From Clostridia bacterium (GTDB taxonomy: Bacteria > Bacillota > Clostridia > TANB77 > UBA1234): DNA of 30,930 nucleotides. The position numbers were made by a program, and so were the translations under genes. The notes under the pieces are model-generated. The model ran no database searches. It was not told where the DNA came from and saw nothing but the letters and a program-made list of their open reading frames with translations. Every line of letters begins with the position of its first letter. Positions within the stretch are counted from its first letter, which is position 1. This document shows positions 9,626 to 30,133 of the stretch, in pieces. The stretch covers positions 1 to 30,930 of the forward strand of contig JAFUGE010000004.1 of assembly GCA_017469545.1 (NCBI GenBank), written 5' to 3'.

Positions 9626-9651
9626 CGGGCAGCGTGATACGCTGCCCCTAC
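9626..9651 (-). repeat. REP-like GTAG-head hairpin, copy 1
   Basis: Plus strand CGGGCAGCGTGATACGCTGCCCCTAC, 5 nt after the cotJC stop. Confidence 0.9.
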
Positions 9652-9656
9652 ATTTT

Positions 9657-10263
9657 TTATTGCATATTGTTGTTCATATTCACATTATTCATATAAAACG
9701 TTCTTTGTGCTAACTTATCTTGCACAGTTCTTAGTGCTTCTCCAAATCTTTGGAAGTGTACGATTTCTCTTTGTCTTAAGAAACGTAGTACATCGATTAC
9801 GTCTGGATCGTCAGCTAAGTCAATTAAATATTCATACGTGCTTCTTGCCTTTTGCTCTGCTGCTAAGTCTTCCGTTAAGTCTGTGATTGGGTCGCCCTTT
9901 ACTTGAAGATATGCTGCTGTAAATGGAACACCTGCCGCACTTTGCGGATATACAGATACACCATGATCTGTATAATATTCTCCTAAACCTTCACGTTTTA
10001 AAACTTCTGGTGATACACCTTTCGTTAATTGATGTACTAAGGCACCTACCATTTCCAAATGTCCGGAGTTCCTCGGTACCTATATCGTTTAGTGTTGCCT
10101 TCGTTGTTTCCGTCGGCATACTAAATCTTTGGCTTAAATATCGAAGTGAAGCTGCCAGCTCGCCATCTGGCCCACCATACTGGCTGATAATTACTTTCGC
10201 CATCCTAGGGTCTGGATTTTTAATATTTACAGGGTATTGCAACTTTTTATCATAATTCCACAT
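9657..10263 (-). pseudogene. cotJC: Spore coat protein CotJC (manganese-catalase-like), interrupted by a 1-nt frameshift
   Basis: ORF 9991..10263 (MWNYDKKLQYPVNIKNPDPRMAKVIISQYGGPDGELAASLRYL...DIGTEEL) and ORF 9657..10058 (EMVGALVHQLTKG...AAGVPFTAAYLQVKGDP...LRFLRQREIVH) together make a full CotJC. Removing one C from CTCCGG (plus 10063..10068) restores ...TEELGHLEMVGA.... Confidence 0.85.
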
Positions 10264-10266
10264 ATT

Positions 10267-10524
10267 CTACACCATCCTTTCCCACGGCCACGGATTTTCT
10301 ATCCATTTCCATTCACACTCACCAGCCGCATTATTTATTGTTAATGGACCATACATTTTCTCATACTTCTCTTTTTTCTCCTCTACTTCTTCTGTAAGTT
10401 CTTGATACATATCCAAAACATCCTCGTCAAATGGATGTGTATCCAAATACAAAGCTAAATCATATAGCTTAAAATCTAATGCCATTATTTCTTTCAATAG
10501 ACTTTTTCTATCTTCCATCATCAT
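10267..10524 (-). CDS. cotJB: Spore coat protein CotJB
   Basis: LLKEIMALDFKLYDLALYLDTHP ... WPWE signature. ATG 10524 lies 9 nt after GAGGAGG. The ORF-track start 10542 is a GTG further upstream. Confidence 0.85.
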   Translation of the reverse strand: MMMEDRKSLLKEIMALDFKLYDLALYLDTHPFDEDVLDMYQELTEEVEEKKEKYEKMYGPLTINNAAGECEWKWIENPWPWERMV

Positions 10525-10798
10525 CGTCACATACCTCCTCACAAGTCTCTGTTCCCTCTAAATATCTTATGATACATTGCGATTGACCAGCCATATATGG
10601 GCTTACTAATTCAGGGAAAGCAGTTCCATTTTCTAGCGCCTCCATTGGGCAAAAGGTGTCTTTCTCTGCATCAACATATTGATAAGGAACATAACTATTT
10701 GCAAGCTGTGGGTCTTTAGGCATCACTGGTAATTCTCTGCAATTCCTACAATTGTTACACATACAATTGTGGCGATTGCGCTTATTTCTTGTGTACAT
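10508..10798 (-). CDS. cotJA: Spore coat-associated protein CotJA
   Basis: SYVPYQYVD...CPMEALENGTAFPELVSPY motif. ATG 10798 is preceded by GAGGAGG. It overlaps the cotJB start. Confidence 0.8.
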   Translation of the reverse strand: MYTRNKRNRHNCMCNNCRNCRELPVMPKDPQLANSYVPYQYVDAEKDTFCPMEALENGTAFPELVSPYMAGQSQCIIRYLEGTETCEEVCDDDDGR

Positions 10799-10887
10799 AA
10801 ATACCTCCTCAAAGTTAAAAAAGTAAGCAAATACCATTTGCTTTCTAATATAGGATATGAGACTTATCCAAAGGAGGTGATAAGAAA

Positions 10888-11030
10888 TTGAAACACGCAA
10901 GGGCATCCGCCTGAAACACGCAGGGACACCCCTTAATGTTTCACGTATTCAACATAAACCAATTATTGGCGATTTATGTCACGTGCGTGAAACATTAAGG
11001 GGTGTCCCTAAGTGTTCCAAGGGGGTGTCC
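10888..11030. repeat. Composite palindromic element between the trpS stop and the cotJ promoter region
   Basis: Perfect 24-bp arms AGGGACACCCCTTAATGTTTCACG (10922..10945) and CGTGAAACATTAAGGGGTGTCCCT (10986..11009) around a 40-bp partly palindromic spacer. TGAAACACGCA is directly repeated (10889, 10911). A third GGGGGTGTCC box lies at 11021..11030. Confidence 0.85.
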
Positions 11031-11039
11031 TACCGTTTT

Positions 11040-12020
11040 TTATCTTCCTAGTCCCATTTTCTTTCTCATATCTTCAAATTTGGCTTTGGCAATTGGTCTG
11101 GTGTAGTCCCTGCCGGCGTCTAGAATTTTATCTACCTCGTTGCTGTTTTGCAAAGCGTTATATCTTTCTTGCACGCCGCTTACAAATTCTATTACTACGT
11201 CTGCTACTTGCTTTTTGAATGTTCCATAGTTGCAACCTTCAAATTCTTTCTCTGCTTCTTCTATCGTTTTGCCTGTTAAGGATATGTATATGTTGATTAA
11301 GTTTGAGATTCCTGGCTTGTTTTCTGGATCATATTTTACTAGCATTTCTGAGTCTGTTGCTGCCGACATAATTTTCTTTCTAATGACATCCAAGTCGTCT
11401 AACAGCATAATGACGCCTTTTTTATTCTCCGCCGATTTGCTCATTTTCTTCGTTGGGTCTTGCAAGTCTGTGATTTTTGTTCCCTCTTTAGCAATTAAAG
11501 GCTGTGGCATTTTAAATGTTTCTCCATACTTTTTGTTGAATCTTTCTGCGATGTCTCTCGCAAGTTCCACGTGCTGCTTCTGGTCGATTCCTACAGGCAC
11601 ATAATCCACATCATAGGCAAGTATATCAGCTGCCATCAAAACAGGGTATGTAAGCAATCCTGACGTGAAATTCTGGCTCTTTTTACTCTTGTCTTTGAAC
11701 TGTGTCATTCTACTTAATTCACCGTAGTATGTGCTGCATTCTAAAAGCCACGATATATTGGCGTGAAATTCATTTTCTGATTGTATAAATATTTTGTTTT
11801 TGTTTGGGTCTATGCCGCAAGCTAAATAGATATTGACTAAACTTCTGATTCGCTCTTTTAATTCTTTAGGGTCTTGTGGCACTGTGATAGAGTGCATATC
11901 TGCAATAAAGATGTATGAATCGTATTTATCTTGATATTCCACTACTTGCCTAATAGAACCTATATAATTTCCAAGTGTAATACTCCCTGTTGGTTGTAAA
12001 CCTGTTAAAATTTTTTCCAT
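11040..12020 (-). CDS. trpS: Tryptophan--tRNA ligase
   Basis: Class I aaRS with GLQPTGSITLGNYIG (HIGH-type region) and KMSKS. 326 aa. AGGAG SD. Confidence 0.95.
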   Translation of the reverse strand: MEKILTGLQPTGSITLGNYIGSIRQVVEYQDKYDSYIFIADMHSITVPQDPKELKERIRSLVNIYLACGIDPNKNKIFIQSENEFHANISWLLECSTYYGELSRMTQFKDKSKKSQNFTSGLLTYPVLMAADILAYDVDYVPVGIDQKQHVELARDIAERFNKKYGETFKMPQPLIAKEGTKITDLQDPTKKMSKSAENKKGVIMLLDDLDVIRKKIMSAATDSEMLVKYDPENKPGISNLINIYISLTGKTIEEAEKEFEGCNYGTFKKQVADVVIEFVSGVQERYNALQNSNEVDKILDAGRDYTRPIAKAKFEDMRKKMGLGR

Positions 12021-12040
12021 TTTATAAAATCTCCTTTAAT

Positions 12041-12068
12041 GCGGGCAGCTTTATTTAGCTGCCCCTAC
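12041..12068 (-). repeat. REP-like hairpin, copy 2 (loop variant), in the trpS 5' UTR
   Basis: Plus strand GCGGGCAGCTTTATTTAGCTGCCCCTAC. It ends 5 nt from the trpS SD. Confidence 0.85.
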
Positions 12069-12082
12069 AATTTATATATCAT

Positions 12083-12110
12083 ATTTTACCAAAAATACGC
12101 ATTTTGTCAA
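12083..12110 (-). promoter_or_regulatory. trpS sigma-A promoter
   Basis: Minus sense TTGACA (12110..12105)-16 nt-TAAAAT (12088..12083), preceded by TGG (extended -10-like). Confidence 0.65.
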
Positions 12111-12143
12111 GATATACGCCTTGATATGCCGAGATTTGCAGGG

Positions 12144-12164
12144 GGGTGGCGTAGCATGCCACCC
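12144..12164. repeat. Diverged REP-like hairpin without a GTAG head
   Basis: GGGTGGC-GTAGCAT-GCCACCC, same stem frame GGGNNGC as the family. Confidence 0.5.
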
Positions 12165-12172
12165 GAATTTTC

Positions 12173-12199
12173 GCGGGCAGCGTATTACGCTGCCCCTAC
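12173..12199 (-). repeat. REP-like hairpin, copy 3
   Basis: Plus strand GCGGGCAGCGTATTACGCTGCCCCTAC. Confidence 0.9.
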
Positions 12200-12220
12200 A
12201 GTTCGAGAATTTCAATAATA

Positions 12221-12245
12221 ACAAAAGACGCGGCTTTGCCGCGTC
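12221..12245 (-). terminator. Intrinsic terminator ending the ribosomal-protein/secY operon
   Basis: Minus sense GACGCGGC-AAA-GCCGCGTC followed by TTTTGTTATT, 8 nt after the secY stop. Confidence 0.85.
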
Positions 12246-12252
12246 TATGTTA

Positions 12253-13575
12253 TTATTCTAAGAATCCCTTATAATGTCTTACCAACATTTGTGATTCTAA
12301 TTGTCTGATTGTCTCTAATGCAACACCTACGATAATTAGGATTGCTGTTCCTCCAAATGAAATTTGAAGACCAGCTACTCTTGCAACTATTGGTAGTATT
12401 GCAATAACACCTAGGAAGAATGAACCAAACCAAGTGATGTACTTAAGAATTCCGCTTAAGTAATCTGACGTTGGTTTTCCGGCTCTAATTCCTGGAACGA
12501 ATCCGCCATTTTTCTTTAAGTTGTTAGCAACTTCCACTGGATTAAATACCATCATTGTGTAGAAGAATGTAAATCCTACAATCAATAATAGATATATTAA
12601 ACTGTGAACAAGTCCATATGGCCAGAATGCGACATCTGTTAAAGATGTGTATGCAAATATCTTATATGCTCCAGCCCAAAATCCTGTTGCTGTTGCAATG
12701 TTAGGATTGATTAATTGAATAATCATAGCTGGGAATTGCATAAATGACATTGCAAAGATAACTGGCATAACGCCTGCCATAGCTAGTTTGATTGGAATGT
12801 GTGTGTTTTGTCCACCATACATTTTTCTTCCAACTACTCTCTTTGCATATTGTACAGGAACTCTTCTTTCAGCTTCTGTAACCCATACAACACCTGCAAT
12901 CAATATGATTGCACCAATGATAATGGCAATTGCCGTGATTAATCCGCTGACACTTAAAGCGCCATCAACTACAGCTAGGCCATACAAGTATTGTGCTGTT
13001 TGTGGTAAACCAGATACGATACCTGCGAAGATAAGTAATGAAATACCATTGCCTACGCCTTTGTTTGTAATCTGGTCACCAATCCACATTAAGAATGTAG
13101 ATCCTGCTGTTAGTGTCATTACGAATAATAGTGGCACTAAAACACCTTCTCCGATAAATACGCCTTGTCCTCTATAAGTAAGGTATAATCCGAAGGCTTC
13201 CACTGCAGCTAGTATCACAGCTGCATATTTTGTATATCTTGAAATTGCTCTTCTTCCTTCTTCGCCCTCTTTAGAAAGTTCTTCTAAAGCTGGAATTGCG
13301 TATGTCAACAATTGAATGACAATCGAAGCCGTAATGTAAGGGCTTATCGACATCGCAAATATAGATAGTCTAGAAAAAGCACCACCAGTTATAAAGTTAA
13401 TTGTTTGTAGTAATGAACTACTACTTGCTTGCACTGCATCGTTTAATGCTACTGCATCAACGCCTGGTGCTGTGATAATCGCACCAAATCTAAATATTAC
13501 TAGAAGTAATAATGTAAATAATAACTTTTTCCTTAATTCAGGAACTTTCCAAGCATTAATGAGTGTTTTGAACAC
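12253..13575 (-). CDS. secY: Preprotein translocase subunit SecY
   Basis: 440-aa 10-TM protein, MFKTLINAWKVPELRKKLLFTL.... GTG start immediately after the rplO TAG, with GAGGTGA SD. Confidence 0.96.
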   Translation of the reverse strand: MFKTLINAWKVPELRKKLLFTLLLLVIFRFGAIITAPGVDAVALNDAVQASSSSLLQTINFITGGAFSRLSIFAMSISPYITASIVIQLLTYAIPALEELSKEGEEGRRAISRYTKYAAVILAAVEAFGLYLTYRGQGVFIGEGVLVPLLFVMTLTAGSTFLMWIGDQITNKGVGNGISLLIFAGIVSGLPQTAQYLYGLAVVDGALSVSGLITAIAIIIGAIILIAGVVWVTEAERRVPVQYAKRVVGRKMYGGQNTHIPIKLAMAGVMPVIFAMSFMQFPAMIIQLINPNIATATGFWAGAYKIFAYTSLTDVAFWPYGLVHSLIYLLLIVGFTFFYTMMVFNPVEVANNLKKNGGFVPGIRAGKPTSDYLSGILKYITWFGSFFLGVIAILPIVARVAGLQISFGGTAILIIVGVALETIRQLESQMLVRHYKGFLE

Positions 13576-14016
13576 CTAGATCACCTCTACCTTTCCGCCA
13601 GCAGCAACGATTCTAGCCTCTGCTGTCTTAGTGATTCTGCTTGCTTTTACTGTTAATTTTTTCGTTAATTCGCCGTTTCCTAGAACTACGATTCCGTCTC
13701 TAACTTTCTTGATAACGCCTAACTCTTTTAGGCTTTCTGCTGTTACTTCTGTTCCATTCTCAAGTTGTTCTAGCATTTCTAAAGTTACTTCTGTATACTC
13801 TTTAGAATTTATATTTTTAAATCCTCTCTTTGGAAGTCTTCTGAATAAAGGCATTTGACCACCTTCAAAACCAGGTCTTACGCCGCCGCCTGATCTTGCG
13901 TTTTGTCCCTTATGTCCTTTACCAGCTGTCTTTCCAAGTCCAGATCCAACTCCTCTACCAATTCTTCTACCAGTTGTTTTTGATCCTGGTGCTGGTTTCA
14001 ATTCGTCAAGTTTCAT
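13576..14016 (-). CDS. rplO: 50S ribosomal protein L15
   Basis: [38 protein letters not shown]. Confidence 0.97.
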
Positions 14017-14061
14017 TTCTATTGCACCTCCCTTTGTTTAATTAAAAAACTGTATCTGTAT

Positions 14062-14087
14062 CGGGTCGCGTGATACGCGACCCCTAC
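14062..14087 (-). repeat. REP-like hairpin, copy 4 (compensated stem variant), in the rpsE-rplO gap
   Basis: Plus strand CGGGTCGCGTGATACGCGACCCCTAC. Confidence 0.85.
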
Positions 14088-14113
14088 ATGGCGATTAAAA
14101 TCACCATGACGGT

Positions 14114-14602
14114 TTAAAGTTCTGCTACTTTTTTTCCTCTAAGCATAGCAACTTCCTCAGCTGTCTTTAATTCTCCTAATGCCTTTAATGTAGCATAAAC
14201 TGCATTTCTAGCATTATTAGAACCTAAGTTTTTCGTTCTAATATTTTTATATCCTGCAAGCTCTAGAACTGATCTTGCGCCACCACCAGCGATTAATCCA
14301 GTACCTTCTACAGCTGGTTTTAAAAGTACTTTACCTGCGCCAAAATGACCTATAATTTCGTGAGGAATTGTTGTATCAACGATTGGAACTTCAATTAAGT
14401 TCTTCTTTGCGTCGTCAATCGCTTTTTTGATTGCGTCTGGAACTTCGGCTGATTTTCCATTGCCTACGCCAACGTGACCTTCGCCATCGCCAACAACAAC
14501 TAGTGCGCTAAAACGAAAAGTTCTACCACCTTTAACAACTTTAGCAACTCTGTTAATCGCAACAACTTTCTCTTTAAGGTCTAATGTCTCTGCATCTATC
14601 AT
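14114..14602 (-). CDS. rpsE: 30S ribosomal protein S5
   Basis: [30 protein letters not shown]. Confidence 0.97.
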
Positions 14603-14625
14603 CTTTTTTCTCCTTTCTTCTTAAT

Positions 14626-14985
14626 TTAGAATTGAAGTCCTGCTTCTCTAGCAGCTTCCGCTAATGCTTTTACTTTACCATGATATATATATCCGCCTCT
14701 ATCGAAAACAACATTTTCAATACCAGCTTTTTTAGCTCTTTTTGCAACTAGCTCGCCAACTTCTTTCGCAGCTTCGATATTGCTAGCCTTTGTCTTTACT
14801 TCTTTATCAAGTGTAGAAGCAGAAACTAAAGTCTTACCAACTGTATCGTCAATGATTTGAGCATAAATGCCTTTGTTACTTCTAAACACACAAAGTCTTG
14901 GACACTCTGTTGTTCCGCTAATTTTTCTTCTTACTCTTACGTGTCTTCTTACTCTTAAGTCATTTCTAACTTCCTTTTTAATCAC
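14626..14985 (-). CDS. rplR: 50S ribosomal protein L18
   Basis: [18 protein letters not shown] ... [29 protein letters not shown] start. Confidence 0.97.
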
Positions 14986-15070
14986 GGTTTTACTCCTTTC
15001 CGATTGAAAATTCTAACTCTCAATCCTTGTTTTTCGTAGAATACCATCATAATAATTAGTGTACTAACTA

Positions 15071-15607
15071 TTATTTCTTACCTACTTTACCTTCTTTTCT
15101 AATAATTCTCTCACCTACATATTTGATACCTTTGCCCTTATATGGCTCTGGTGGTCTTACTTTTCTAATCTCAGCTGTTAATTGTCCAACTCTTTCTTTG
15201 TCGATACCGTTGACAACGATACTTGTTTGAGATGGAGCTTCGATTGTTAAACCATCTTCGTCTTCGAACTCAACTGTATGAGAGAATCCCATATTCATAA
15301 TCAATTTCTTACCTTGTTTTTGAACTCTATAACCAACGCCGTTTATTTCAAGTTCTTTCTTGAAACCTTCCGTAACGCCAATTACCATATTGTTAAGCAA
15401 AGTTCTTGATAAACCTTGTAAATTATCTTCTTCTGGATTATTTACTTTAATGTTTATCTCGCCTGCATTTTGCTCAATTGTAACATCTTTATGGAATTGT
15501 CTTGTTAAAGTACCCTTAGGGCCTTTTACTGTTACTAGATTTCCTTCGTCAACTTTCACTTCAACACCAGCAGGAACGGTTACAGGTTTGTTACCTATTC
15601 TAGACAT
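15071..15607 (-). CDS. rplF: 50S ribosomal protein L6
   Basis: [19 protein letters not shown] ... [11 protein letters not shown]. Confidence 0.97.
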
Positions 15608-15647
15608 TTTATTTTCCCCTTTCTAAATTGTAAATTTAATCTCTAGA

Positions 15648-16043
15648 CTACCATACAAATGCTAAAACTTCTCCACCAATACCTTCTTGGCGAGCTTTTT
15701 TATCTGTCATGATTCCTTTTGATGTTGATATTAATGCAATACCCAAACCGCCTAATACCTTTGGCAATTCGTCTTTCGTTGCATAAACTCTCAATCCTGG
15801 TTTGCTTATTCTTTTTAGTCCTGAAATTACTTTTTGTTTATTAACGTATTTTAATGTAATTCTTAAAATACCTTGTGAATTATCTTCTATCTCTTCAAAT
15901 GCCTTTATGTATCCTTCCTCTAACAAAATCTCTGCGATAGATTTTTTCATTTTAGAAGCAGGAACATCAACAGTCTCGTGTCTTTGCGCATTTGCATTTC
16001 TAATTCTTGTTAGCATATCTGCTATTGGATCAGTAATGTTCAT
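15648..16043 (-). CDS. rpsH: 30S ribosomal protein S8
   Basis: [15 protein letters not shown]. Confidence 0.97.
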
Positions 16044-16086
16044 TTACGAAAACTCCTTTCTTTCTAGAATTTTTATCTCTAAATTA

Positions 16087-16272
16087 TTACCAACTAGCTT
16101 TCTTTACTCCAGGAATCTCGCCCTTGTGAGCTAACTCTCTAAAGCATATTCTGCAAATACCATACTTACGAATGTAAGCGTGTGGTCTTCCGCAAATTTT
16201 GCATCTATTATATTGTCTTGTGCTGAACTTTGGTTCTAATTTTTGTTTAGCAATCAATGATTTTTTTGCCAT
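16087..16272 (-). CDS. rpsN: 30S ribosomal protein S14, short zinc-binding (type Z) form
   Basis: 61 aa with CKICGRP...CRIC. Confidence 0.96.
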
Positions 16273-16284
16273 GATTCTCCTCCT

Positions 16285-16824
16285 TTACTTTGAAAATGGC
16301 ATACCAAGAAGTCTTAATAACTCCTTTGCCTCTTCGTCCGTTTGAGCAGTTGTAACGAATATAATATCCATACCTCTAATCTTGTCGATTTTATCGTACT
16401 CAATTTCTGGGAATATTAATTGTTCTTTCACACCCATCGTGTAGTTTCCTCTTCCATCGAAAGAGTTTGGAGATAATCCTTTGAAATCTCTAACTCTTGG
16501 AAGAGCTACATTGAATAACTTCGTGATAAAATCATACATCTTATCAGCTCTTAATGTAACTTTACATCCGATTTTCATTCCTTCTCTAATTTTAAAACCT
16601 GCAATAGATTTTTTAGCCGTTGTAGCAACTGCCTTTTGACCAGTGATAATCTCTAAATCTCTCATTGCACTCTCTAAAGCTTTTGCGTTATCTCTTACGT
16701 CGCTTACGCCCATATTGATAACAACTTTCTCAAGCTTTGGAACTTGCATCACTGATTTGTACTCGAACTTCTTCATAAGTTCTTGCACGATTTCGTTTTT
16801 ATATGTTTCTTGTAGCTTTGTCAT
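16285..16824 (-). CDS. rplE: 50S ribosomal protein L5
   Basis: Operon position, and sequence ...[21 protein letters not shown].... Confidence 0.97.
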
Positions 16825-16843
16825 ACTAATGATTACCTCCTTT

Positions 16844-17164
16844 CTACTTTATTTCACTGCCACACTTACTGCAAACTCTAACCTTTGTGCCGTCTTTCTT
16901 TACTTCTGATTTTGTTCTAACGCCCTTTCCGCACTTAGAGCAAAATACATTTGCTTTAGAAGCGTTAATTGCAACTTCAGATTTTAAGATTCCACCTGGT
17001 TCTCCTGCAGCTCTTGGCTTTGTATGCTTAGATCTAACATTGACACCTTCAACTACTACTTTATTTTCTTTTGGTAATACTTCTAAAACCTTACCCTTTT
17101 TGCCTTTATCAGCGCCAGAGTTAATCATAACAGTATCACCCTTTTTAACGTGTAGGTTGTTCAT
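16844..17164 (-). CDS. rplX: 50S ribosomal protein L24, with a four-cysteine C-terminal region
   Basis: KOW region [23 protein letters not shown]-terminus [33 protein letters not shown]. Confidence 0.96.
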
Positions 17165-17205
17165 TCTTTTTTACACCACCTTTAGTTTAATCTTATTCCT
17201 CTAAA

Positions 17206-17574
17206 TTATAGAACCTCTGGAGCAAGAGAAAGAATCTTCATATATTCTTTATCTCTTAATTCTCTGGCTACTGGCCCAAATATACGAGTACCTCTAGGGT
17301 TCTTGTCTTCTTTTATAATAACGGCTGCATTATCGTCAAATCTGATGTAAGAACCATCAGCTCTCTTAAGACCTTTTTTCGTTCTTACTACAACAGCCTT
17401 TACAACATCACCTTTTTTTACCATTCCGCCTGGTGTAGCGCTCTTTACAGAAGCAACAATAACATCACCGATGTTAGCAAACTTTCTATAAGAACCACCA
17501 AGACATCTGATAACCATGATTTCCTTAGCTCCTGTGTTGTCAGCAACACGAAGGATACTTTGTTGTTGTACCAT
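17206..17574 (-). CDS. rplN: 50S ribosomal protein L14
   Basis: [18 protein letters not shown]. Confidence 0.97.
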
Positions 17575-17618
17575 GATTTATTCTCCTTTCATTAAAATTG
17601 TAATATGAATTCTCCGTC

Positions 17619-17645
17619 GCGGGCAGCGTAATACGCTGCCCCTAC
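17619..17645 (-). repeat. REP-like hairpin, copy 5, in the rpsQ-rplN gap
   Basis: Plus strand GCGGGCAGCGTAATACGCTGCCCCTAC (consensus form). Confidence 0.9.
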
Positions 17646-17672
17646 ACATCCTGTATAGGGATTTTTCAACAA

Positions 17673-20871: not shown

Positions 20872-20900
20872 GCGGGCAGCTTAGATAACGCTGCCCCTAC
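20872..20900 (-). repeat. REP-like hairpin, copy 6 (longer loop), in the rplW-rplB gap
   Basis: Plus strand GCGGGCAGCTTAGATAACGCTGCCCCTAC. Confidence 0.85.
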
Positions 20901-21869: not shown

Positions 21870-21888
21870 TTCTTATATCCTCCTTCCC

Positions 21889-22524: not shown

Positions 22525-22574
22525 TTTTAAATACCTCCTTGGTTATCGGTTCATTTTCGTTATGAACATGACCA

Positions 22575-22919
22575 TTATTTGTTAACTTTCATTTCTGCTT
22601 CAACACCAGCTGGCAATTCTACTTTCATTAAAGCTTCAGCCGTCTTTGGTGTTGGGTAAAGAATATCAATCACTCTCTTATGCGTTCTCATTTCGAATTG
22701 TTCTCTTGAATCCTTGTACTTGTGTGGTGAACGTAAAATTGTGATAACTTCTTTCTTAGTAGGTAGTGGAATAGGTCCTGAAACTTGAGCTCCACTTCTT
22801 TTAGCCGTATCTACTATTTTTTGAGCAGACTGGTCTAGAAGAACGTGATCAAAAGCTTTAAGTCTAATTCTGATTCTTTCCTTTCCTACTTCCGTTGTCG
22901 TTTGTTTTTCCTTTGGCAT
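22575..22919 (-). CDS. rpsJ: 30S ribosomal protein S10, with an N-terminal extension of about 12 aa
   Basis: [40 protein letters not shown]. Confidence 0.97.
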
Positions 22920-23125
22920 ATTGGTTTCCCTCCTTAAAAATTTGTTACGACAAAGTTATCCACGCACCCGGGTGTTTCAAATAATCCCATATTTAAACCC
23001 AGGTAAATACCTGGGGAAAAGTGCTTTTCCTACCCTTGTCGCCCGGTTTATAATCGGACATACTCCGTGAAAGTTCCCTGCCCGTAAGCGGCAGCCACAT
23101 TCCACATCATCGCAATATCACATCG
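22920..23125 (-). promoter_or_regulatory. Structured 5' leader of about 200 nt for the S10 operon
   Basis: It lies between the predicted promoter and the rpsJ SD and looks more G/C-rich than its surroundings. Perfect hairpins are CCCAGGU-AUUU-ACCUGGG (22998..23015) and GGAAAAG-CA-CUUUUCC (23015..23030). Long-range complementarities are CGACAAGG/CUUUGUCG and CCGGG/CCCGG. Confidence 0.5.
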
Positions 23126-23131
23126 TGCACT

Positions 23132-23160
23132 ATTATACTACCTACGGAAGCACAATGCAA
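23132..23160 (-). promoter_or_regulatory. S10-operon sigma-A promoter
   Basis: Minus sense TTGCAT (23160..23155)-17 nt-TATAAT (23137..23132). Confidence 0.7.
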
Positions 23161-23163
23161 GAG

Positions 23164-23199
23164 TTTTTTAACAAATTTTAGAAAAAATTTGTTAAAAAA
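23164..23199. promoter_or_regulatory. Perfect 16-bp A/T-only inverted repeat abutting the S10 promoter -35
   Basis: TTTTTTAACAAATTTT-AGAA-AAAATTTGTTAAAAAA. Could be an UP-element-like region or a protein binding site. Confidence 0.4.
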
Positions 23200-23201
23200 C
23201 C

Positions 23202-23228
23202 GTAGGGGCAGCGTACCACGCTGCCCGC
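23202..23228 (+). repeat. REP-like hairpin, copy 7 (GTAG head on the plus strand)
   Basis: GTAGGGGCAGCGTACCACGCTGCCCGC. Confidence 0.9.
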
Positions 23229-23257
23229 TATTTATGATTCTTTATCCATTCGTGCGT

Positions 23258-23286
23258 TTTCGGGCGGCGTAATACGCCGCCCGAAA
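23258..23286. repeat. REP-related fully symmetric hairpin (compensated variant, no GTAG)
   Basis: TTTCGGGCGGCG-TAATA-CGCCGCCCGAAA, 4 nt after the stop of the large lipoprotein gene. Confidence 0.7.
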
Positions 23287-23290
23287 TATT

Positions 23291-26200
23291 TTATTTCTTA
23301 TACCCATCAATAATTTCGTCATTATATTTTAGCATAATTATTCCTGGCTCGTATTGCTCGCCGGAGTTGGTAATTCTTACTTTATACTTGACCTCCGACC
23401 TAATTGCCGAAGGATTCCACTTAGGGTCGTACGAGTTCCAACAGTTTATCGTAAGTTTTTGCCCATCTTGTTTTCTTAAATATCCATTCGTATTTTGTCC
23501 ATATAGGTACTCCACAAATGTCATATTATTTGGGATGGCGTCCTCTATCTTAAAGCCGTACTGGTGCCCCTCGTCATAAAGCTTTTTGTTGTCTACCACG
23601 ATACTCACTTCTACCAAGTCTCCTACTTTCGCATTGCTATTGCTGTACGACTTCGAAATGATGTAGTCATTATCAGGAATGGTAGCAAAATCAATCGGCT
23701 TATACTGCTCTATCATAAACTTCAAATTATCCGACATTGCCACAACTTCAATCTCGTCTTTACCGGCAATTAGTTTTCTCGTAAACCCTACATTCTTTAC
23801 TTCCACTTCTTCCTCTTTGCCATTAATTCTTAAGGTTAGCGTTCCCTTCTTGTAATTCTTAGAAACCGCATTTTGTACATAGTAAAGTTTAACAAAGTCA
23901 CTATTTTCCGGAAGTAATTCTTTTTTAAGATATGCTTGGTATAACTCTTCCATTTCAGGCAAGTTTAGTTTAATCGCTAAAATCACTTTTAACTCAAATT
24001 CTGTTTCGTCCTTTTCTGTAACGGCATCCTTCACGATATCATATAGTTCCAACGCATCGTCATAGGCCCCGATATCTGCAAATGCTAGGGATAGATACAA
24101 AACATTTTCTTTTGTGTACTTTGCAGTATTCTTCAAAATGGATTCTTTCTCTTCCCTTAATTCTTTTAATGTCGCTGTGTTCATATTAACTTTTGCCCAA
24201 AGCGCCGCTTGATTGCCAAGTCTTACTTCAATCTTGTCAATGACTTCTTCACTATCAATACGTAGTGCTCTCGTCGCAAGCATTCGAAGCGCAAGCCTTG
24301 CATCGTCGCTGCTATTCTTCATTACCTTAAAGATATTCTTCTCTGCCACATAGCTATACTTCTGCGCATATTCAAATTCTACCCCATTGACTAGATTATT
24401 AAAAATTCTAGCACTTTCACTTGCAATCAATGTCGTGTCGTTTCTGTCGCTATTGTAACTACTTGAAAGCTCGAAAATCGTAGGCAACACTTTCGCAATA
24501 TCCGTATTCAAAATATACAAATATCCTTTTGGAGAAACAATCGCAATCTTATCGCCCACTTGCAAAACAAGGTCTTCTCGAATCGTTGCGTCAAGCAAAC
24601 TTTCCGTCACTTCAATCTCGTCTATCAAAATATCTTTGCTCTTTCCGCAAGTACCAGTAATCTTAATCTTGTAAGTTCCTTTTGTTTCAAGTGCTTTGCT
24701 TACTTGATAAGATAGTACATCCCCCACTTTCTCATTTAGCGTATTTTGCTCAATCACATTGTCCTTGGCATCTAAAATTTCGACTTTGAATGTCATATCT
24801 TTGCCACTATCTGTCTTCGAAAAACTCTTAATGTTAAAAGCAAAATGCTCTCCCACCAAATATCTATCCTTGTGGTTCACGCTCACGAAGAAATCTTTGC
24901 TCACTTTAATCTTCTTTTCCGCTGCCACGGCCTTGTAATCATTCGAAATCGCCTGTGCTTTTATTGTCCATTCCGTAATATTATCCGGCAATTTCACTTT
25001 GATTTTCGCCACGCCATTTTCGTCTGTCACAATACTTTCAAAAAATGCCGTCACTCTCAAATCGTCTCTCACAGAGGCGCTATCGTCGCCACCTCCGCCG
25101 CCAGCCATTTCCGGTTCGTCTGCCATCATTGCCATTTCATTCACAGCTGTATCTCTCGCCGAATTACTTGCAAATTTCGTCATCGCTTTCGTTCCATTGC
25201 TAGCAGACTGAATATAGTACTGATTCATTAAACTACTAACGATATTACTACTTACCGCTCCATTCGCGTCAATATAAGCCGTATCTAGCGCCGATAAATT
25301 CACGCTCGCTTTCACGCCTTTGCCATTGCTCGTAACTTTTATCGTAATTTCCGCTTCGTCTTTTGGCTCATACACTTCTTTATCAAAAGATACTTCAATG
25401 CCTAACGATAACTCCTCCTCGCAAAGTGTAATTTGCGAAGTAGGACGCCAGAAATAATCACTTCTTATCATAGAGTAGAACGAGTAAATATCATTTGACG
25501 TTGGAACATATGTCTTCAAAGAGTCATATAAAATCGTGTAGGTTGCCACATTCGCGCCCATTTCTTTCGTAAATGTAAAATGTGGTCTTTCCCCTTGATT
25601 ATGATAAATCTTGTTTCCGTCTGCCGATACTACCAAGGTATAAAAATCAAACATGGCATAATCGTTTAATCTTCTTCCCTCGCTGTCTTGCAAATAGAAA
25701 TAAACTTCGTCTCCTACCTTTAACTTATCATTCGTCTCATAGCGTAACGTATACGTCAATTCGTTATTGATAATTGGCGTCACATACTCTACTTCTTCGT
25801 ACTGCGTCGTTGAATTTACTGTTTTGTATGACATTGAATAGATTTGCCCGTTATAACTTAAGGCTAATTCCTTGCCATTTTCCGTCATTAAATAAGCATA
25901 AAAACGATAATAGCAATTTTTATCTTCTTTATAATTCGCAAGCGTATAAGTTCCCTTGCCGTCTTTCATATTCACCATAAAAGACTTATCATAGCTGCTT
26001 TCTGCCACTTCTCGATACTCAACGATATCTTCCATTTCTTTCGTGTATTTATTGTATCTTGTGCCAGTAACCGTCCTTACTGTCTTATATGCTTTTGCCA
26101 CCACTTTGATATTATCATTCGCAGGCACGGTATTATCTAAAGATAAATACTCGTTAAAAGAAAGATAATATTGATTCTCGTCTACGATAAACTTTACTTG

Positions 26201-28270
26201 ACTGTCCGCATAATGCTTATATGGATAAACCGTAAAGTACACACTTTCTTGCTCTCCATCAATATAGGAATTCAAAATCGTCACGCGAATTGTCTCCGGC
26301 AAAATATTCGTCTGTGATTTTGCCAAAATAAGTGGCACACGAATCGTCGCATTTCCAGAAGCATCTGTTGTCACTTTTCCGCTTTGCGCTTTCGCGCTAT
26401 TGCCATAGTAGCGATTATCGATTTCATATGAAAAATCCAAATTACCAAGTGGGGTGCCATCATAAGTAGAAGCAGAAATATCAATCGCTGCCGTATCGCC
26501 GTCTAAATATCTTGTGCTTTCTGGTTTAATTTCAATTTGATATTGCTTTAACTCATAATTTCTCACTTCAAAAGTTCTAGAACTTACTGCATTATCGCCA
26601 ATATATAGCGTTGCCGTGATATAGCTTTCTTGATTCACATCCGAAATCACAAACTCTGTTTCATAAGCCCCAACTTCATTTAATCTTAGCGGTATTTCTG
26701 CTAGCGTGTCGTCCCAATTGGAAACAATTTTCAAAGTCGCATTCTTTACTTCCACTTTTCTGTTCTTTGCATATCCCCAGAAGTGGACTGTCTCTCCCGG
26801 CTTGTAGTAATTCCTATCGACATACACATATCCATTATGAAATCTCGAAAGGGCTGTCAATGCATTCTCGCCAGAATATTCACTATCCACTTGATTGGAA
26901 ATATCGCAAATCAAATTGGTGTTACCATTCTTAAATTCAATATAATTAATTTCTTTCTCTAAATTCTTGATCGTATTTCGAAAGCTTTCTACGTATAGAA
27001 GTCCTTCCTCAGATGTCGTGCCAAGCTTTTCTTGGTTCACATAGACGTCGACACTGTTATTCTTGCCGTCCTTACCTTTATATAAAATCATGAAATTATC
27101 ATTGGCAAGCGTCGAGCAAGTTGCCGTCGCTTCATTGACTTGAAATAGCGCGCTACTTAATTTATCGTTGATGTTCAAAATTGCTAAATAGTAGCCCTCT
27201 TTTTCTATCCTCAAATTCGCCTCGATTGGAAGCTCGTCGTAGTAATAATATCTACTTTTCGCCTTAGCGTCATTGTAAGCATTGGTCATTTCGCCTTTGA
27301 TATCTTTTGTAAAAATGGTCGTATATCCCTTTGCATTGTAATAGTTTGTCAAACTTTCCAAATCATTCACATCTTTGATTGCCTTGATAAAATTCTCTTT
27401 TGAGCCCAAATCAATAATCTTTATCTTGGCTTCTTTGATAGACAAACTCTTATTCAAATTCATACTTAGGCCTAGCTGAAAATCAATTGGATCGTTTGGC
27501 TGGTAACGGTTCAAAAGCATCAAGCTTGCTGAAACATCTTCTTCATTACTAATCGAAAACTGAAATGTATAATCTTCTTTTAATTCATTTCCGTCAATAT
27601 CTTTCAAACCCCTTTTAATTCTTATCGTATAGGTAGTATTCTTTTCGAAATGTTTATCGTGCTCAAAACGATAATTGTATGTATAACTATTCTTCCACTC
27701 TCCAGATATTTGAGGCTCTATCGTAATGTAATCCTTAAGTCTTACATCCTCCGCAATTTTGCTGTTGAATCGAATCTCGGGAACGCCCGTCTCCGTAAGG
27801 ATTTCTTGATTAGCAGGATAGGTATAATCCACACTAAAAATCTTTTCCGTTTGGAATGCCCACTTTTTCGTACCACTTGCCGTGCTCTCAATAATGTTAT
27901 AAATCTGGTCGTCCTCCAAAGCCTCTTTCGTTGTTAATTGATAATACTTCGGATTAATTTGCACCACGTCCAATTCCCTATAAGGCTTGATACTAAACGT
28001 ATTTTCCACATACTCCTGCGTCACCTCTTCGTCAAAACGAACGGAAAAACTAGCCGTAACAGGAATGATACTCCCCGTCTCTTCGCTAGCACTAACCTCT
28101 GCCTCAGCCGCCTTATCAAAAACAATTCTCTCTTTCTTCGGCGTCACACTATCCATAAAAGCCACCCTTTCATCGTACACTAACTCATTATCGCTAATTT
28201 CTGTATCGGCACAACCCGTAAGCAAAATCGCCCCTATGCCAAGTACTGCCAAAACTTTTGAAAATCTCAT
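23291..28270 (-). CDS. Alpha-2-macroglobulin-like / MG-domain giant lipoprotein (1659 aa), no thioester motif
   Basis: Lipoprotein signal MRFSKVLAVLGIGAILLTGC from ATG 28270, with AAGGGA 8 nt upstream (the ORF track starts 3 codons earlier). A2M-family block LRVTAFFESIVTDENGVAKIKVKLPDNITEWTIKAQAIS follows a Gly/acidic bait-like stretch. No CxEQ anywhere. Confidence 0.8.
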   Translation of the reverse strand: MRFSKVLAVLGIGAILLTGCADTEISDNELVYDERVAFMDSVTPKKERIVFDKAAEAEVSASEETGSIIPVTASFSVRFDEEVTQEYVENTFSIKPYRELDVVQINPKYYQLTTKEALEDDQIYNIIESTASGTKKWAFQTEKIFSVDYTYPANQEILTETGVPEIRFNSKIAEDVRLKDYITIEPQISGEWKNSYTYNYRFEHDKHFEKNTTYTIRIKRGLKDIDGNELKEDYTFQFSISNEEDVSASLMLLNRYQPNDPIDFQLGLSMNLNKSLSIKEAKIKIIDLGSKENFIKAIKDVNDLESLTNYYNAKGYTTIFTKDIKGEMTNAYNDAKAKSRYYYYDELPIEANLRIEKEGYYLAILNINDKLSSALFQVNEATATCSTLANDNFMILYKGKDGKNNSVDVYVNQEKLGTTSEEGLLYVESFRNTIKNLEKEINYIEFKNGNTNLICDISNQVDSEYSGENALTALSRFHNGYVYVDRNYYKPGETVHFWGYAKNRKVEVKNATLKIVSNWDDTLAEIPLRLNEVGAYETEFVISDVNQESYITATLYIGDNAVSSRTFEVRNYELKQYQIEIKPESTRYLDGDTAAIDISASTYDGTPLGNLDFSYEIDNRYYGNSAKAQSGKVTTDASGNATIRVPLILAKSQTNILPETIRVTILNSYIDGEQESVYFTVYPYKHYADSQVKFIVDENQYYLSFNEYLSLDNTVPANDNIKVVAKAYKTVRTVTGTRYNKYTKEMEDIVEYREVAESSYDKSFMVNMKDGKGTYTLANYKEDKNCYYRFYAYLMTENGKELALSYNGQIYSMSYKTVNSTTQYEEVEYVTPIINNELTYTLRYETNDKLKVGDEVYFYLQDSEGRRLNDYAMFDFYTLVVSADGNKIYHNQGERPHFTFTKEMGANVATYTILYDSLKTYVPTSNDIYSFYSMIRSDYFWRPTSQITLCEEELSLGIEVSFDKEVYEPKDEAEITIKVTSNGKGVKASVNLSALDTAYIDANGAVSSNIVSSLMNQYYIQSASNGTKAMTKFASNSARDTAVNEMAMMADEPEMAGGGGGDDSASVRDDLRVTAFFESIVTDENGVAKIKVKLPDNITEWTIKAQAISNDYKAVAAEKKIKVSKDFFVSVNHKDRYLVGEHFAFNIKSFSKTDSGKDMTFKVEILDAKDNVIEQNTLNEKVGDVLSYQVSKALETKGTYKIKITGTCGKSKDILIDEIEVTESLLDATIREDLVLQVGDKIAIVSPKGYLYILNTDIAKVLPTIFELSSSYNSDRNDTTLIASESARIFNNLVNGVEFEYAQKYSYVAEKNIFKVMKNSSDDARLALRMLATRALRIDSEEVIDKIEVRLGNQAALWAKVNMNTATLKELREEKESILKNTAKYTKENVLYLSLAFADIGAYDDALELYDIVKDAVTEKDETEFELKVILAIKLNLPEMEELYQAYLKKELLPENSDFVKLYYVQNAVSKNYKKGTLTLRINGKEEEVEVKNVGFTRKLIAGKDEIEVVAMSDNLKFMIEQYKPIDFATIPDNDYIISKSYSNSNAKVGDLVEVSIVVDNKKLYDEGHQYGFKIEDAIPNNMTFVEYLYGQNTNGYLRKQDGQKLTINCWNSYDPKWNPSAIRSEVKYKVRITNSGEQYEPGIIMLKYNDEIIDGYKK

Positions 28271-28365
28271 ACCCATCATCCCTTACCAAAAATTGTATCA
28301 AATTAATCATACACTATTATGACAGAAAAACAAATCATTTTGTTTCAAATCGTATGATTGCGTTT

Positions 28366-28392
28366 GCGGGCAGCGTGTTACGCTGCCCCTAC
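28366..28392 (-). repeat. REP-like hairpin, copy 8
   Basis: Plus strand GCGGGCAGCGTGTTACGCTGCCCCTAC. Confidence 0.9.
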
Positions 28393-28406
28393 AAATTCAA
28401 ATTTTA

Positions 28407-28435
28407 TTGACTGTCATGGTAAAGATATATATAAT
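28407..28435 (+). promoter_or_regulatory. dut sigma-A promoter
   Basis: TTGACT (28407..28412)-17 nt-TATAAT (28430..28435). Confidence 0.7.
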
Positions 28436-28448
28436 GAATACAGAAAAC

Positions 28449-28475
28449 GTAGGGGCAGCGTAATACGCTGCCCGC
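28449..28475 (+). repeat. REP-like hairpin, copy 9, in the dut 5' UTR
   Basis: GTAGGGGCAGCGTAATACGCTGCCCGC, ending 5 nt before AAGGAGG. Confidence 0.9.
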
Positions 28476-28494
28476 AAATCAAGGAGGTAACAAA

Positions 28495-29004
28495 ATGAGA
28501 ATAAGAGGATTTGAAGTATGCAAAGGATTCGAAGACAAAGACATCACTTTGCCAATCAGAAAAACAAAAAATTCCGTAGGATACGACATCGAAGCCGCAG
28601 AAGATACGGTAATTCCGTCTATGTGGAAAACCATATTTGAAAACGTCAAAAAATTCATATCAGGCAATCACGAATACGAACCAATCAAACCAACACTTGT
28701 CAAAACAGGCGTCAAAGCCTATTTTCAAGAAGACGAAGCATTATTCTTGGCCAATAGAAGTTCCAACCCAGGCAAAAAAGGCTTAATCCTAGCAAACAGC
28801 ATAGGTGTAATCGAATGCGACTACTATGGAAACCCAGACAACGACGGCCATATTATGTACGCCTACTACAACTTCTTCCCAGTAGACACGACAATCAAAA
28901 AGCACGAACCAATCGGCCAAGCATTCTTCCAAAAATTCTTAATCACAGACGACGACAAAGCCACAGGCGAAAGAATGGGCGGATTTGGAAGTACAGATAA
29001 ATAG
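28495..29004 (+). CDS. dut: dUTP diphosphatase (trimeric dUTPase family)
   Basis: All five dUTPase motifs: SVGYDI, NRSSNP, GVIECDYYGN, PIGQAFF, GGFGSTDK. Confidence 0.88.
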   Translation: MRIRGFEVCKGFEDKDITLPIRKTKNSVGYDIEAAEDTVIPSMWKTIFENVKKFISGNHEYEPIKPTLVKTGVKAYFQEDEALFLANRSSNPGKKGLILANSIGVIECDYYGNPDNDGHIMYAYYNFFPVDTTIKKHEPIGQAFFQKFLITDDDKATGERMGGFGSTDK

Positions 29005-29030
29005 GCTTATTGGGGAAATGTAGTTTTTTC

Positions 29031-29094
29031 GTGGCGGGTTGAAAAGGCGAAGCCACGGCTGAGCGCCGTAGGCGATCAACGGACAGCCCGCCAC
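29031..29094. other. GC-rich structured island of unknown function in a convergent intergenic gap
   Basis: Outer stem GTGGCGGG/CCCGCCAC encloses the hairpin GCCACGGC-TGAGC-GCCGT(A)GGC. A T-run precedes it and an A-run follows, the reverse of a terminator. Confidence 0.4.
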
Positions 29095-29114
29095 AAAAAC
29101 ACTTGTTATCCGTT

Positions 29115-30038
29115 CTAAATTTCCATTTCCATCTCTTGATGCCTCTTTATCCTCTCCAAAACGGCTTTGTCACTAATCACATCTTCTATCTCACCATCCG
29201 CAATACTGCCATTTTTCGTATAATTCACAATTGCGCTCGCCTCATTTTTGAACTGCTGCATATAGTAACGATCTGCCATCAAACTATTTCTATCAATTTC
29301 CAAACCTCTATTTTTCAAATCCAGCGTAGACGGACAAGCCATTACTTCAGCATCCGGAAAATATTTCTTAAAACTCAAAATCGCTCTCCTACAATGAAAA
29401 GAAGAAGTAATAACCATAATCTTCTTCACTTTGTGAACTTTTCCCTCCTCCTGTAGCTCGTCCAATAATTTCCTGGAATACTGCAAATTCTGCACTGTAT
29501 TCATAGAGTCCTTTTCCAAAAACATCTTATCGTCCGGAATACTCACAACATCCTGACTCGCCTTCATAATCTTATAAGCAATCTGCGCCTCCGTCTCATT
29601 TAGTGCCTGTTTCAACCTTTTGCCCATATATTTGTACAAGGCCTTCCCCTTTTTGCCACTTACCTCCGTCTGTTGCATCCCATCAAAAATCGTATGTTTC
29701 AAGGCAAGCTTCATTTCCTTATACTTCTTCGCCTTTAGCTGCAAATATGCATACTTCTCGCCCTCATTCTTAAAAGCTTTGTTCTCCACCTTAAAAAGTT
29801 TGTGCCAGCCATTGCCCCCAGAAAGTAGCACATACTCGCCATATCCTTTCTGGTAAAGCTGCATCATTTTTACCACTCTCGCCTTAAGTGGAACCGGAGA
29901 ACATCCAAGCACAATCAAAAAATCTGGATTGTTCTCAGGCAAAGGTTCTTCCCCTGCATAATCCACAATGCCGCTCATTACCAAATCATACATATCATTA
30001 TCCGTTAACTTCTTAAGATCTAAATCAGAAAATTTCAT
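29115..30038 (-). CDS. DUF218 / YdcF (ElyC/SanA-like) family protein
   Basis: FLIVLGCSPVPLKARVVKMMQLYQKGYGEYVLLSGGNG and IMVITSSFHCRRA motifs. ATG 30038 with AGGGAGG SD. The ORF-track start 30077 is an over-extension. Confidence 0.8.
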   Translation of the reverse strand: MKFSDLDLKKLTDNDMYDLVMSGIVDYAGEEPLPENNPDFLIVLGCSPVPLKARVVKMMQLYQKGYGEYVLLSGGNGWHKLFKVENKAFKNEGEKYAYLQLKAKKYKEMKLALKHTIFDGMQQTEVSGKKGKALYKYMGKRLKQALNETEAQIAYKIMKASQDVVSIPDDKMFLEKDSMNTVQNLQYSRKLLDELQEEGKVHKVKKIMVITSSFHCRRAILSFKKYFPDAEVMACPSTLDLKNRGLEIDRNSLMADRYYMQQFKNEASAIVNYTKNGSIADGEIEDVISDKAVLERIKRHQEMEMEI

Positions 30039-30054
30039 AACAGACCTCCCTCTT

Positions 30055-30065
30055 GCGGGTAGCGT
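30055..30065 (-). repeat. Half REP (one arm only) abutting the DUF218 SD
   Basis: Plus strand GCGGGTAGCGT, identical to the left arm of copy 10 located 52 nt away. Confidence 0.6.
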
Positions 30066-30106
30066 TCTTGATACCACTCAGCAGTAACATCTCTACCACT
30101 CATTTT

Positions 30107-30133
30107 GCGGGTAGCGTAATACGCTACCCCTAC
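30107..30133 (-). repeat. REP-like hairpin, copy 10 (compensated variant)
   Basis: Plus strand GCGGGTAGCGTAATACGCTACCCCTAC, 5 nt after the ATP-grasp stop. Confidence 0.9.

Follow-up and report, generated by a model that had tools for sequence, protein, structure and literature searches.

The 30,930-nt stretch of Clostridia bacterium DNA analysed here (the window; contig JAFUGE010000004.1 of assembly GCA_017469545.1) contains a series of short GC-rich hairpins headed by an unpaired GTAG, and raises the question of what these units are and how they came to stand between the genes of an AT-rich Firmicute, some of them inside the ribosomal protein operon. A first-pass annotation of the sequence had compared them with repetitive extragenic palindromes (REPs), the elements on which REP-associated tyrosine transposases (RAYTs, also known as TnpA-REP) act. 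The presence of a repeat family is confirmed and is far beyond chance. We interpret it as a REP-type family that a HuH/Y1 enzyme of the RAYT type would have spread through intergenic DNA, the ribosomal protein operon included, in a gut lineage of AT-rich Clostridia, and give this interpretation a probability of roughly 0.55.

A search of the window for GTAGGGGCAGCG with up to 2 mismatches returned 11 matches where 0.78 were expected, and this number was reached in none of 100 shuffles. Ten of the 11 are full copies and lie at exactly the coordinates first given for them, as found by a pattern search; the eleventh (18341) is a chance match within the coding region of a ribosomal protein gene. 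The window also has 13 perfect GC-rich hairpins where local shuffling predicts 0.1: 9 belong to the family, 2 are headless relatives, 1 is the secY terminator, and 1 is a short hairpin (22998-23015) immediately before rpsJ (S10). All ten copies fall within 20.5 kb, with none in window positions 1-9625. The window corresponds to the reverse complement of positions 450-31379 of scaffold_386 in ENA ERZ28654170, a metagenome scaffold of 118.6 kb, and 3 further copies were found in the adjoining 8.5 kb, past window position 1, bringing the total to 13 in 40 kb (∼1 per 3 kb). All 13 are between called genes apart from one at a gene junction.

Read head first, the unit comprises a pyrimidine followed by GTAG, a stem of 9 bp (GGGCAGCGT), a 3-nt loop, the complementary arm ACGCTGCCC, a G and usually a C, for a total of 25-28 nt; the stem is not 8 bp, nor the loop 5 nt, as originally described. 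GTAG is present in 10/10 full copies of the window and 13/13 of the scaffold, and the first base of the 3-nt loop is A in every case. The base at -1 relative to GTAG, a position never constrained by the search patterns, is a pyrimidine in all 26 copies from AT-rich lineages (T in 17, C in 9), with a chance probability of ∼2e-10. The base 3′ of the 3′ arm is G in all copies, including 15 where the search pattern left it free. Flanks are A-rich, and similarity between copies stops 1-2 nt outside the hairpin and its GTAG. Among 21 distinct copies, 96% of stem cells are paired, and double-sided changes were found in 12 cells at 3 stem positions, a result unmatched by any shuffle or shifted register. 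The stem sub-types GGGCAGCGT, GGGTCGCGT, GGGTAGCGT and GGGCGGCGT each occur with a complementary 3′ arm.

GTAG-tagged REPs, as surveyed by Di Nocera, De Gregorio and Rocco in 2013, are defined by an invariant unpaired 5′ GTAG and, behind it, a short GC-rich palindrome, with many copies scattered through extragenic DNA, and in this respect the original comparison with REPs was correct (PMC3733652). REPs of that superfamily have stems of 6-9 bp, loops of 2-3 nt and sub-families with complementary stem changes; they are extragenic, mostly downstream of genes, likely to be transcribed, and occur as singletons and as head-head and tail-tail dimers (PMC3733652). The units in the window share the GTAG, the GC-rich stem, the short loop, the complementary stem variants, the extragenic location, the likelihood of being transcribed and the occurrence as both singletons and dimers. 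Doublets were found at 12138-12199 (heads outside) and 28366-28475 (heads inside, 56-nt spacer), in the fetched locus L063 (545/622), and as a convergent pair in a rumen Clostridiales metagenome-assembled genome (MAG), RUG13043. The differences lie in the host phylum, in a host of ∼36% GC from which the units stand out as sharp GC islands, and in the presence of copies in the S10-spc operon and in 5′ untranslated regions (UTRs).

The nearest characterised type is the group 3 GTAG REPs, exemplified by REP_Sm of Stenotrophomonas maltophilia, a 23-nt element made up of GTAG, an 8-bp perfect palindrome and a 3-nt loop, which is cleaved in vitro by TnpA_Sm at a CT dinucleotide, with GTAG taking part in site choice (PMC8266576). 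The two share GTAG, a perfect palindrome and the 3-nt loop, but the stem is 9 bp here rather than 8 bp, the base before GTAG is any pyrimidine and not specifically part of CT, and REP_Sm has a demonstrated cognate enzyme. The REPs of Escherichia coli, which form bacterial interspersed mosaic elements (BIMEs) and are associated with RayT (YafM), also have a GTAG head, are present in high copy number and have reported roles in mRNA stability (PMC3333891, PMC3479197). The 5′ GTAG and the extragenic hairpin are common to both, whereas the E. coli elements are longer, have a bulged stem that is needed by the enzyme, and are mostly found as BIME doublets, with RayT in a REP-flanked REPtron. Here the stems are perfect, the copies are mostly single, and no REPtron was seen in the fetched loci.

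The GTAG survey covers Proteobacteria, Cyanobacteria, Chloroflexi and the PVC superphylum, and includes no Firmicutes in its text or genome table (PMC3733652). A text search of the literature found no paper with GTAGGGGCAGCG. Within the literature searched, a GTAG-REP family in Clostridia is not described, and the earlier statement that no such family was known from low-GC Gram-positives agrees with both the GTAG and the RAYT surveys, though this is not proof of priority.

The motif recurs outside the window, further along the scaffold, in another metagenome and in a related species, as the first-pass annotation had required of a true family. An exact-pattern scan of JGI metagenomes detected the family on 11 short contigs of one assembly (31-36% GC), and in L076, a relative with 87% SecY identity sampled from the Hadza gut, GTAG hairpins whose stems read GGGTCGC are found 3′ of secY. 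GTDB species genomes were scanned with a looser pattern. Among the matches listed, all from outside the window's own lineage, this head and stem recurred in several copies in a Faecousia MAG (Oscillospiraceae, JAZQHW01), in at least 4 copies within 3.7 kb of RUG13043, and in MAGs labelled Ignavibacterium, Obscuribacter and Chloroflexota; Chloroflexus islandicus (L021) has a single copy among the matches listed. The C. islandicus unit, GTAGGGGCAGCGC-GTC-GCGCTGCCC, has the same head, the same first 8 stem pairs, a 9-bp stem and a 3-nt loop; its only differences are the loop sequence and stem pair 9. The Chloroflexota hosts are unrelated and of higher GC. No copy was found in the viral contigs scanned. 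Two MAGs labelled 'uncultured Ignavibacterium' (∼40% GC) contain a composite repeat, GTAGGGGCAGCG-CTTGC-CGCTGCCC, that is followed by a second small hairpin, TGCGCGTAAGCGCA. It was seen in at least 11 fetched stretches (L012, L026, L027, L029, L037, L041, L045, L046, L051, L055 and L057), and the GTAG survey names no GTAG REPs for the Ignavibacterium group.

The host had been taken for an AT-rich, spore-forming Firmicute, and this is borne out by a GC content of ∼36%, an S10-Clostridia leader, cotJA, cotJB and cotJC, and Coat_F; SecY homologs of 73% identity labelled 'Clostridia bacterium' at NCBI also support a Clostridia-type host. On the minus strand, the genes are in the order A2M-like gene (1662 aa), S10-Clostridia leader (Rfam RF03136, the only Rfam family above threshold in the window), S10-spc operon to secY, tRNA-synt_1b gene, cotJA, cotJB and cotJC. 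The GTAG head lies on the minus strand in 8 of the ten copies and on the plus strand in the other 2 (23202 and 28449). The copies, their relatives and the nearby signals are as follows.

9626-9651, minus strand: full copy, 5 nt past the cotJC stop and upstream of a TTGCAA-16-TATAAT promoter-like site; the sole copy with a T-rich tail in sense orientation (GTTTAATGTTTT).
12041-12068, minus strand: variant copy with an 8-bp stem (GGGCAGCT) and a 6-nt loop, in the 5′ UTR of the tRNA-synt_1b gene, 14 nt past the -10 hexamer of the best-matching promoter; a Shine-Dalgarno sequence comes directly after.
12083-12110, minus strand: promoter-like site TTGACA-16-TAAAAT with a TG extension (11/12 matches), conserved in the relative L058 with no hairpin downstream there.
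12138-12165 (hairpin 12144-12164), plus strand: degenerate headless inverted partner with GCAG at the head position (GCAGGG precedes the hairpin) and, apart from a single mismatch, a paired stem (GGGTGGCGT/ATGCCACCC); makes up a doublet with the next copy, 8 nt away, heads outside.
12173-12199, minus strand: full copy, 53 nt past the secY stop and just beyond the true secY terminator (12226-12246).
14062-14087, minus strand: full copy between rpsE (S5) and rplO (L15), with the compensatory stem variant GGGTCGCGT/ACGCGACCC.
17619-17645, minus strand: full copy between rpsQ (S17) and rplN (L14).
20872-20900, minus strand: copy with a longer loop and an imperfect inner stem, 4 nt past the rplW (L23) stop and before rplB (L2).
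23202-23228, plus strand: full copy, antisense to both neighbours, in the spacer that separates the S10 leader from the A2M-like gene's 3′ end.
23258-23286, strand unassigned: headless relative TTTC-GGGCGGCGT-AAT-ACGCCGCCC-GAAA, a palindrome of 12-13 bp immediately 3′ of the A2M-like stop codon.
28366-28392, minus strand: full copy upstream of the A2M-like gene and sense to it; pairs in inverted orientation with the 28449 copy, from which 56 nt separate it, with the GTAG heads on the inner side.
28407-28435, plus strand: promoter-like site TTGACT-17-TATAAT (11/12 matches), ending 13 nt before the 28449 copy.
28449-28475, plus strand: full copy in the 5′ UTR of, and in sense to, the plus-strand gene 28495-29004, with AAGGAGG and ATG directly after.
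∼30055-30065, minus strand: half copy, the 3′ arm ACGCTACCCGC, a repeat ∼40 nt downstream of the 30107 copy.
30107-30133, minus strand: full copy with the compensatory stem variant GGGTAGCGT/ACGCTACCC, 5 nt past the stop of gene 30139-30930.

The two headless hairpins and the half copy reported earlier are thus present in the window sequence. The claim that all members are extragenic stands for the full copies, which are without exception between called genes, but not for the half copy, which, provided the GTG start is correctly placed, falls in the first codons of the open reading frame (ORF) 29115-30077. In two places the 3′ arm is partly duplicated in tandem beside a full copy, with GCTGCCCGCGA repeated at L073 21551-21600 and ACGCTACCCGC repeated ∼40 nt away at window 30055-30065, which hints at slippage or abortive events at the hairpin.

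The positions listed bear directly on whether the copies are lineage-specific intrinsic terminators or attenuators that share sequence by chance, and make this extremely improbable. A terminator-like scan does flag 9627-9647, 23206-23226 and 28453-28473, in one or other orientation, and the copy past cotJC has its GTTTAATGTTTT tail. However, that copy is the only one of ten with a T-rich tail in sense; the sense 3′ flanks of others read GCAAG, GCGAC, GATAC, GCGAA, GCATT or similar. Three copies separate essential ribosomal protein genes that are transcribed together, two are in 5′ UTRs directly before a Shine-Dalgarno sequence, and secY already has a canonical terminator of its own at 12226-12246. 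Independent terminators would also not be expected to have an invariant unpaired Y-GTAG and a 9-bp stem in common. Ordinary terminators were the explanation named at the outset as able to overturn the comparison with REPs, and they are not borne out. The hairpins also gave no match to an Rfam RNA family at the gathering threshold; at E ≤5 the only matches were spurious ones of miRNA type, on the 28366-28475 pair.

Comparison with relatives bears on how the copies were acquired. The operon was compared with that of L058, L076, L077 and L060, in which SecY is 92%, 87%, 86% and 79% identical, respectively. In all four, the hairpin was not found at the L23|L2, S17|L14 and S5|L15 spacers, and the flanks align (promoter, Shine-Dalgarno and coding ends). 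Nor was it found in the synthetase 5′ UTR of L058, the sole relative comparable there; the TTGACA-16-TAAAAT promoter of this leader and the ATATATAAATT that follows are common to the window and L058, but only the window has the 28-nt unit. At S17|L14, the window spacer measures 98 nt compared with ∼15-20 nt in the relatives. A pre-existing GTAG was found only in the S5|L15 spacer of L076, in roughly the matching place, and the other empty sites are without one; apart from A-rich flanks and the pyrimidine at -1, no consistent target was found. A second, independent assembly of this strain terminates within one copy, as would be expected of a genome-wide repeat. On these grounds, and with the compensatory changes in the stem, the copies look like insertions rather than conserved local structures.

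Other spacers of the ribosomal operon are occupied in L058 and L060 by unrelated inserts of ∼120-190 nt that have inverted ends (e.g. TTGAGTGGTGAGTGATG...CATCACTCAA) and lie directly 3′ of stop codons (L058 3960-4718 and 6245-6433; L060 5669-5887 and 8879-9022). These resemble miniature inverted-repeat transposable elements (MITEs) and are a different family in the same niche as the GTAG hairpins. Insertions into the ribosomal operon are evidently tolerated in this clade. The GTAG unit was itself considered as a MITE and rejected, as MITEs are 70-300 bp with terminal inverted repeats and a target-site duplication, and the unit is 25-28 nt with no terminal inverted repeats and no duplication seen. 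The small repeats listed for Firmicutes, namely RUP, bcr1 and EFAR, are MITEs of 70-300 bp with terminal inverted repeats (PMC3733652). They are similarly dispersed non-coding repeats that lie beside genes and fold in RNA, but the element described here is a single hairpin of 25-28 nt with a GTAG tag.

Among copies with assignable neighbours, 19/24 are in sense to the adjacent gene (p = 0.0066), a count that excludes the higher-GC MAGs (Faecousia, 'Ignavibacterium' and Obscuribacter), where gene calls from raw ORFs are too noisy. On the scaffold, gene sense accounts for 11/13 copies and a single DNA strand for 9/13, making gene sense the better predictor. A start ≤5 nt from a sense stop codon was seen in 7/26 copies, and on one metagenome contig the TAG of GTAG is the stop codon. 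The two best promoter matches in the scanned regions (11/12 each) end 13 and 14 nt short of copies with a Shine-Dalgarno sequence and start codon immediately behind them, and those hairpins would therefore lie near mRNA 5′ ends. Predicted RNA folding energies are -15 to -20 kcal/mol, with z-scores of -2.6 to -5. The sense bias (19/24) and the invariant -1 pyrimidine (26/26) are new details. Sense bias, together with placement at mRNA 5′ ends and just past stops, suggests that the hairpins may have a role at the transcript level.

Taken further, the same observations could mean that the units are primarily RNA elements, serving as 5′ or 3′ mRNA stabilisers, as sites where RNases process or are blocked, or as protein-binding sites, with their spread secondary. 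Many REPs have been argued to act as RNA elements (Di Nocera et al., PMC3733652), and the sense orientation, the two copies 13-14 nt past strong -10 hexamers, the closeness to stop codons and the very stable folds are all in keeping with this. Yet relatives do not have the copies at orthologous sites, there is no Rfam match, about 1/5 of copies are antisense or beyond terminators, and proximity to stop codons and Shine-Dalgarno sequences is also expected from constraint alone in spacers of 15-40 nt. A primary RNA function is considered clearly unlikely; as a secondary role it would be compatible with a mobilised REP-type family.

A mobilising enzyme was sought. The first-pass annotation had seen no transposase in the window, and Pfam lists, a HuH...Y---NP regular expression and phmmer agree. 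No RAYT or other Y1 transposase was detected in the window, the 8.5-kb extension or the ∼80 fetched loci; the regular expression applied to all ORFs of all fetched loci found nothing, as did phmmer with E. coli RayT against 5160 six-frame ORFs. A tblastn search with RayT against 72,556 plasmids returned 32 records, with no Firmicute among the 32 matches listed, but revealed a clear Chloroflexota REPtron (L080), in which a RAYT is flanked by GTAG doublets on a replicon of 49% GC. A protein search seeded with the L080 RAYT gave 5066 homologs, of which the best 120 are Chloroflexota-type and none is labelled Clostridia. RAYTs are single-copy and less than 2% of the genome was seen, so that the failure to find one is at most weak evidence of absence. 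Many of the L080-RAYT homologs among the matches listed are on contigs of ∼1 kb, which fits assembly breaks at flanking REPs, and a RAYT would thus be easily lost from a binned MAG.

The enzyme search leaves room for a REP family that has no dedicated RAYT and is either a relic, mobilised in trans by an IS200/IS605 TnpA, or spread by recombination or gene conversion. This is possible, though on the unlikely side. Besides the lack of a Y1 gene in any fetched locus, it is favoured by the precedent of CGTC-tagged REPs, which likewise have no dedicated transposase (PMC3733652), and by the IS200-type transposases of subclass 1.1, the only ones mentioned for Clostridia by Quentin et al. and strongly represented there (PMC6006769). 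The partial arm duplications (30055 and the 3′ flank of the L073 21551 copy) and the extra block in the S17|L14 spacer suggest slippage or recombination. Against this, the invariant GTAG and -1 pyrimidine are the signature read by TnpA-REP enzymes (PMC8266576), IS200/IS605 ends have other guide tetranucleotides and imperfect hairpins, and the search for an enzyme covered very little of the genome.

Several observations weigh against mobilisation by a RAYT-type HuH/Y1 enzyme. Apart from the missing gene, no target-site duplication or clean excision footprint is definable at the copies, and the extra block in the S17|L14 spacer is 83 nt, more than the 27-nt unit. Singletons make up the majority of the 26 copies, whereas in Pseudomonas and E. 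coli it is the inverted doublet that is regarded as mobile. The orientation bias tracks transcription and not one DNA strand, and this is not what a single-strand mechanism coupled purely to replication would predict. Finally, Group 1 is the only RAYT group reported from Clostridia by Bertels et al., and its flanking 16-mers are far rarer than those of Groups 2 and 3 (PMC5581495); it corresponds to subclass 2.1 of Quentin et al., with no REP-like sequences nearby (PMC6006769). The sole RAYT group surveyed from Clostridia is thus the least REP-linked (PMC5581495, PMC6006769).

A RAYT-type enzyme nevertheless seems the most likely mobiliser. Under this interpretation, the units would spread as single-stranded DNA hairpins, cut and rejoined by a HuH/Y1 enzyme of the RAYT (TnpA-REP) type that would be encoded once elsewhere in the genome. 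The unpaired GTAG would be the recognition or guide element, and the invariant -1 pyrimidine could mark the position of cleavage or of the junction. Most inserted copies would then be transcribed in sense as very stable RNA hairpins, which may be tolerated, and possibly used, as protection at mRNA 5′ ends, just past stops and between cistrons.

The surrounding DNA has other unusual features. The layout of the operon (window 12020-14114) is odd, with no rpmD (L30) between S5 and L15 and no adk-map cluster 3′ of secY in the window, where the tRNA-synt_1b gene and cotJABC are found instead; adk and map are present 3′ of secY in L060. cotJC, of the Mn-catalase family, is in two overlapping ORFs (window 9657-10263). 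In L058 (11567-18197), cotJB is followed by a large serine recombinase and phage-like genes, and the split cotJC and the recombinase arrangement are reminiscent of intervening elements found interrupting sporulation genes. A large imperfect inverted repeat (window 10881-11050), with 78-nt arms that are 76% complementary and contain GGGACACCCC/GGGGTGTCCC motifs, occupies the whole spacer between the synthetase gene and cotJA, and L058 is without it. Two identical 64-nt near-perfect palindromes (TGAACTTGGGGACGTCCATTGAAAATTCA...) are at window 8149-8212 and 9133-9196, on either side of a membrane-like ORF (8497-9066, plus strand) with no Pfam match. A contig of the sister assembly begins near one of them, and a 30-nt repeat is common to both. 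The palindrome is probably another genome-wide repeat or forms the ends of a small cassette.

REPs and RAYTs are the best-studied case of a domesticated transposase that coexists with a population of miniature repeats, and to our knowledge what is known of them comes almost wholly from Proteobacteria. If the GTAG-REP family described here stands, their host range would be widened to Bacillota, and units that stand out by their GC content from an AT-rich background would be easy to count and to date. The RNA roles of REPs could be tested where mRNA decay is by a 5′-to-3′ exonuclease and not RNase E. Such repeats also break metagenome assemblies, and here they are located in the ribosomal protein operon, a common source of phylogenomic markers. 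A more speculative and rather unlikely extension is a REP lineage of gut Clostridia selected at the RNA level, in which the hairpins would be kept mainly in sense and act as 5′ caps, post-stop blocks and operon insulators under RNase J/Y-type decay, and would be spread by a highly divergent Y1 enzyme or with no dedicated RAYT. Should that be the case, the occurrence of near-identical GTAGGGGCAGCG in Clostridia, in Chloroflexota and in MAGs labelled Ignavibacterium or Obscuribacter would point to horizontal spread, or to repeated selection of one preferred hairpin.

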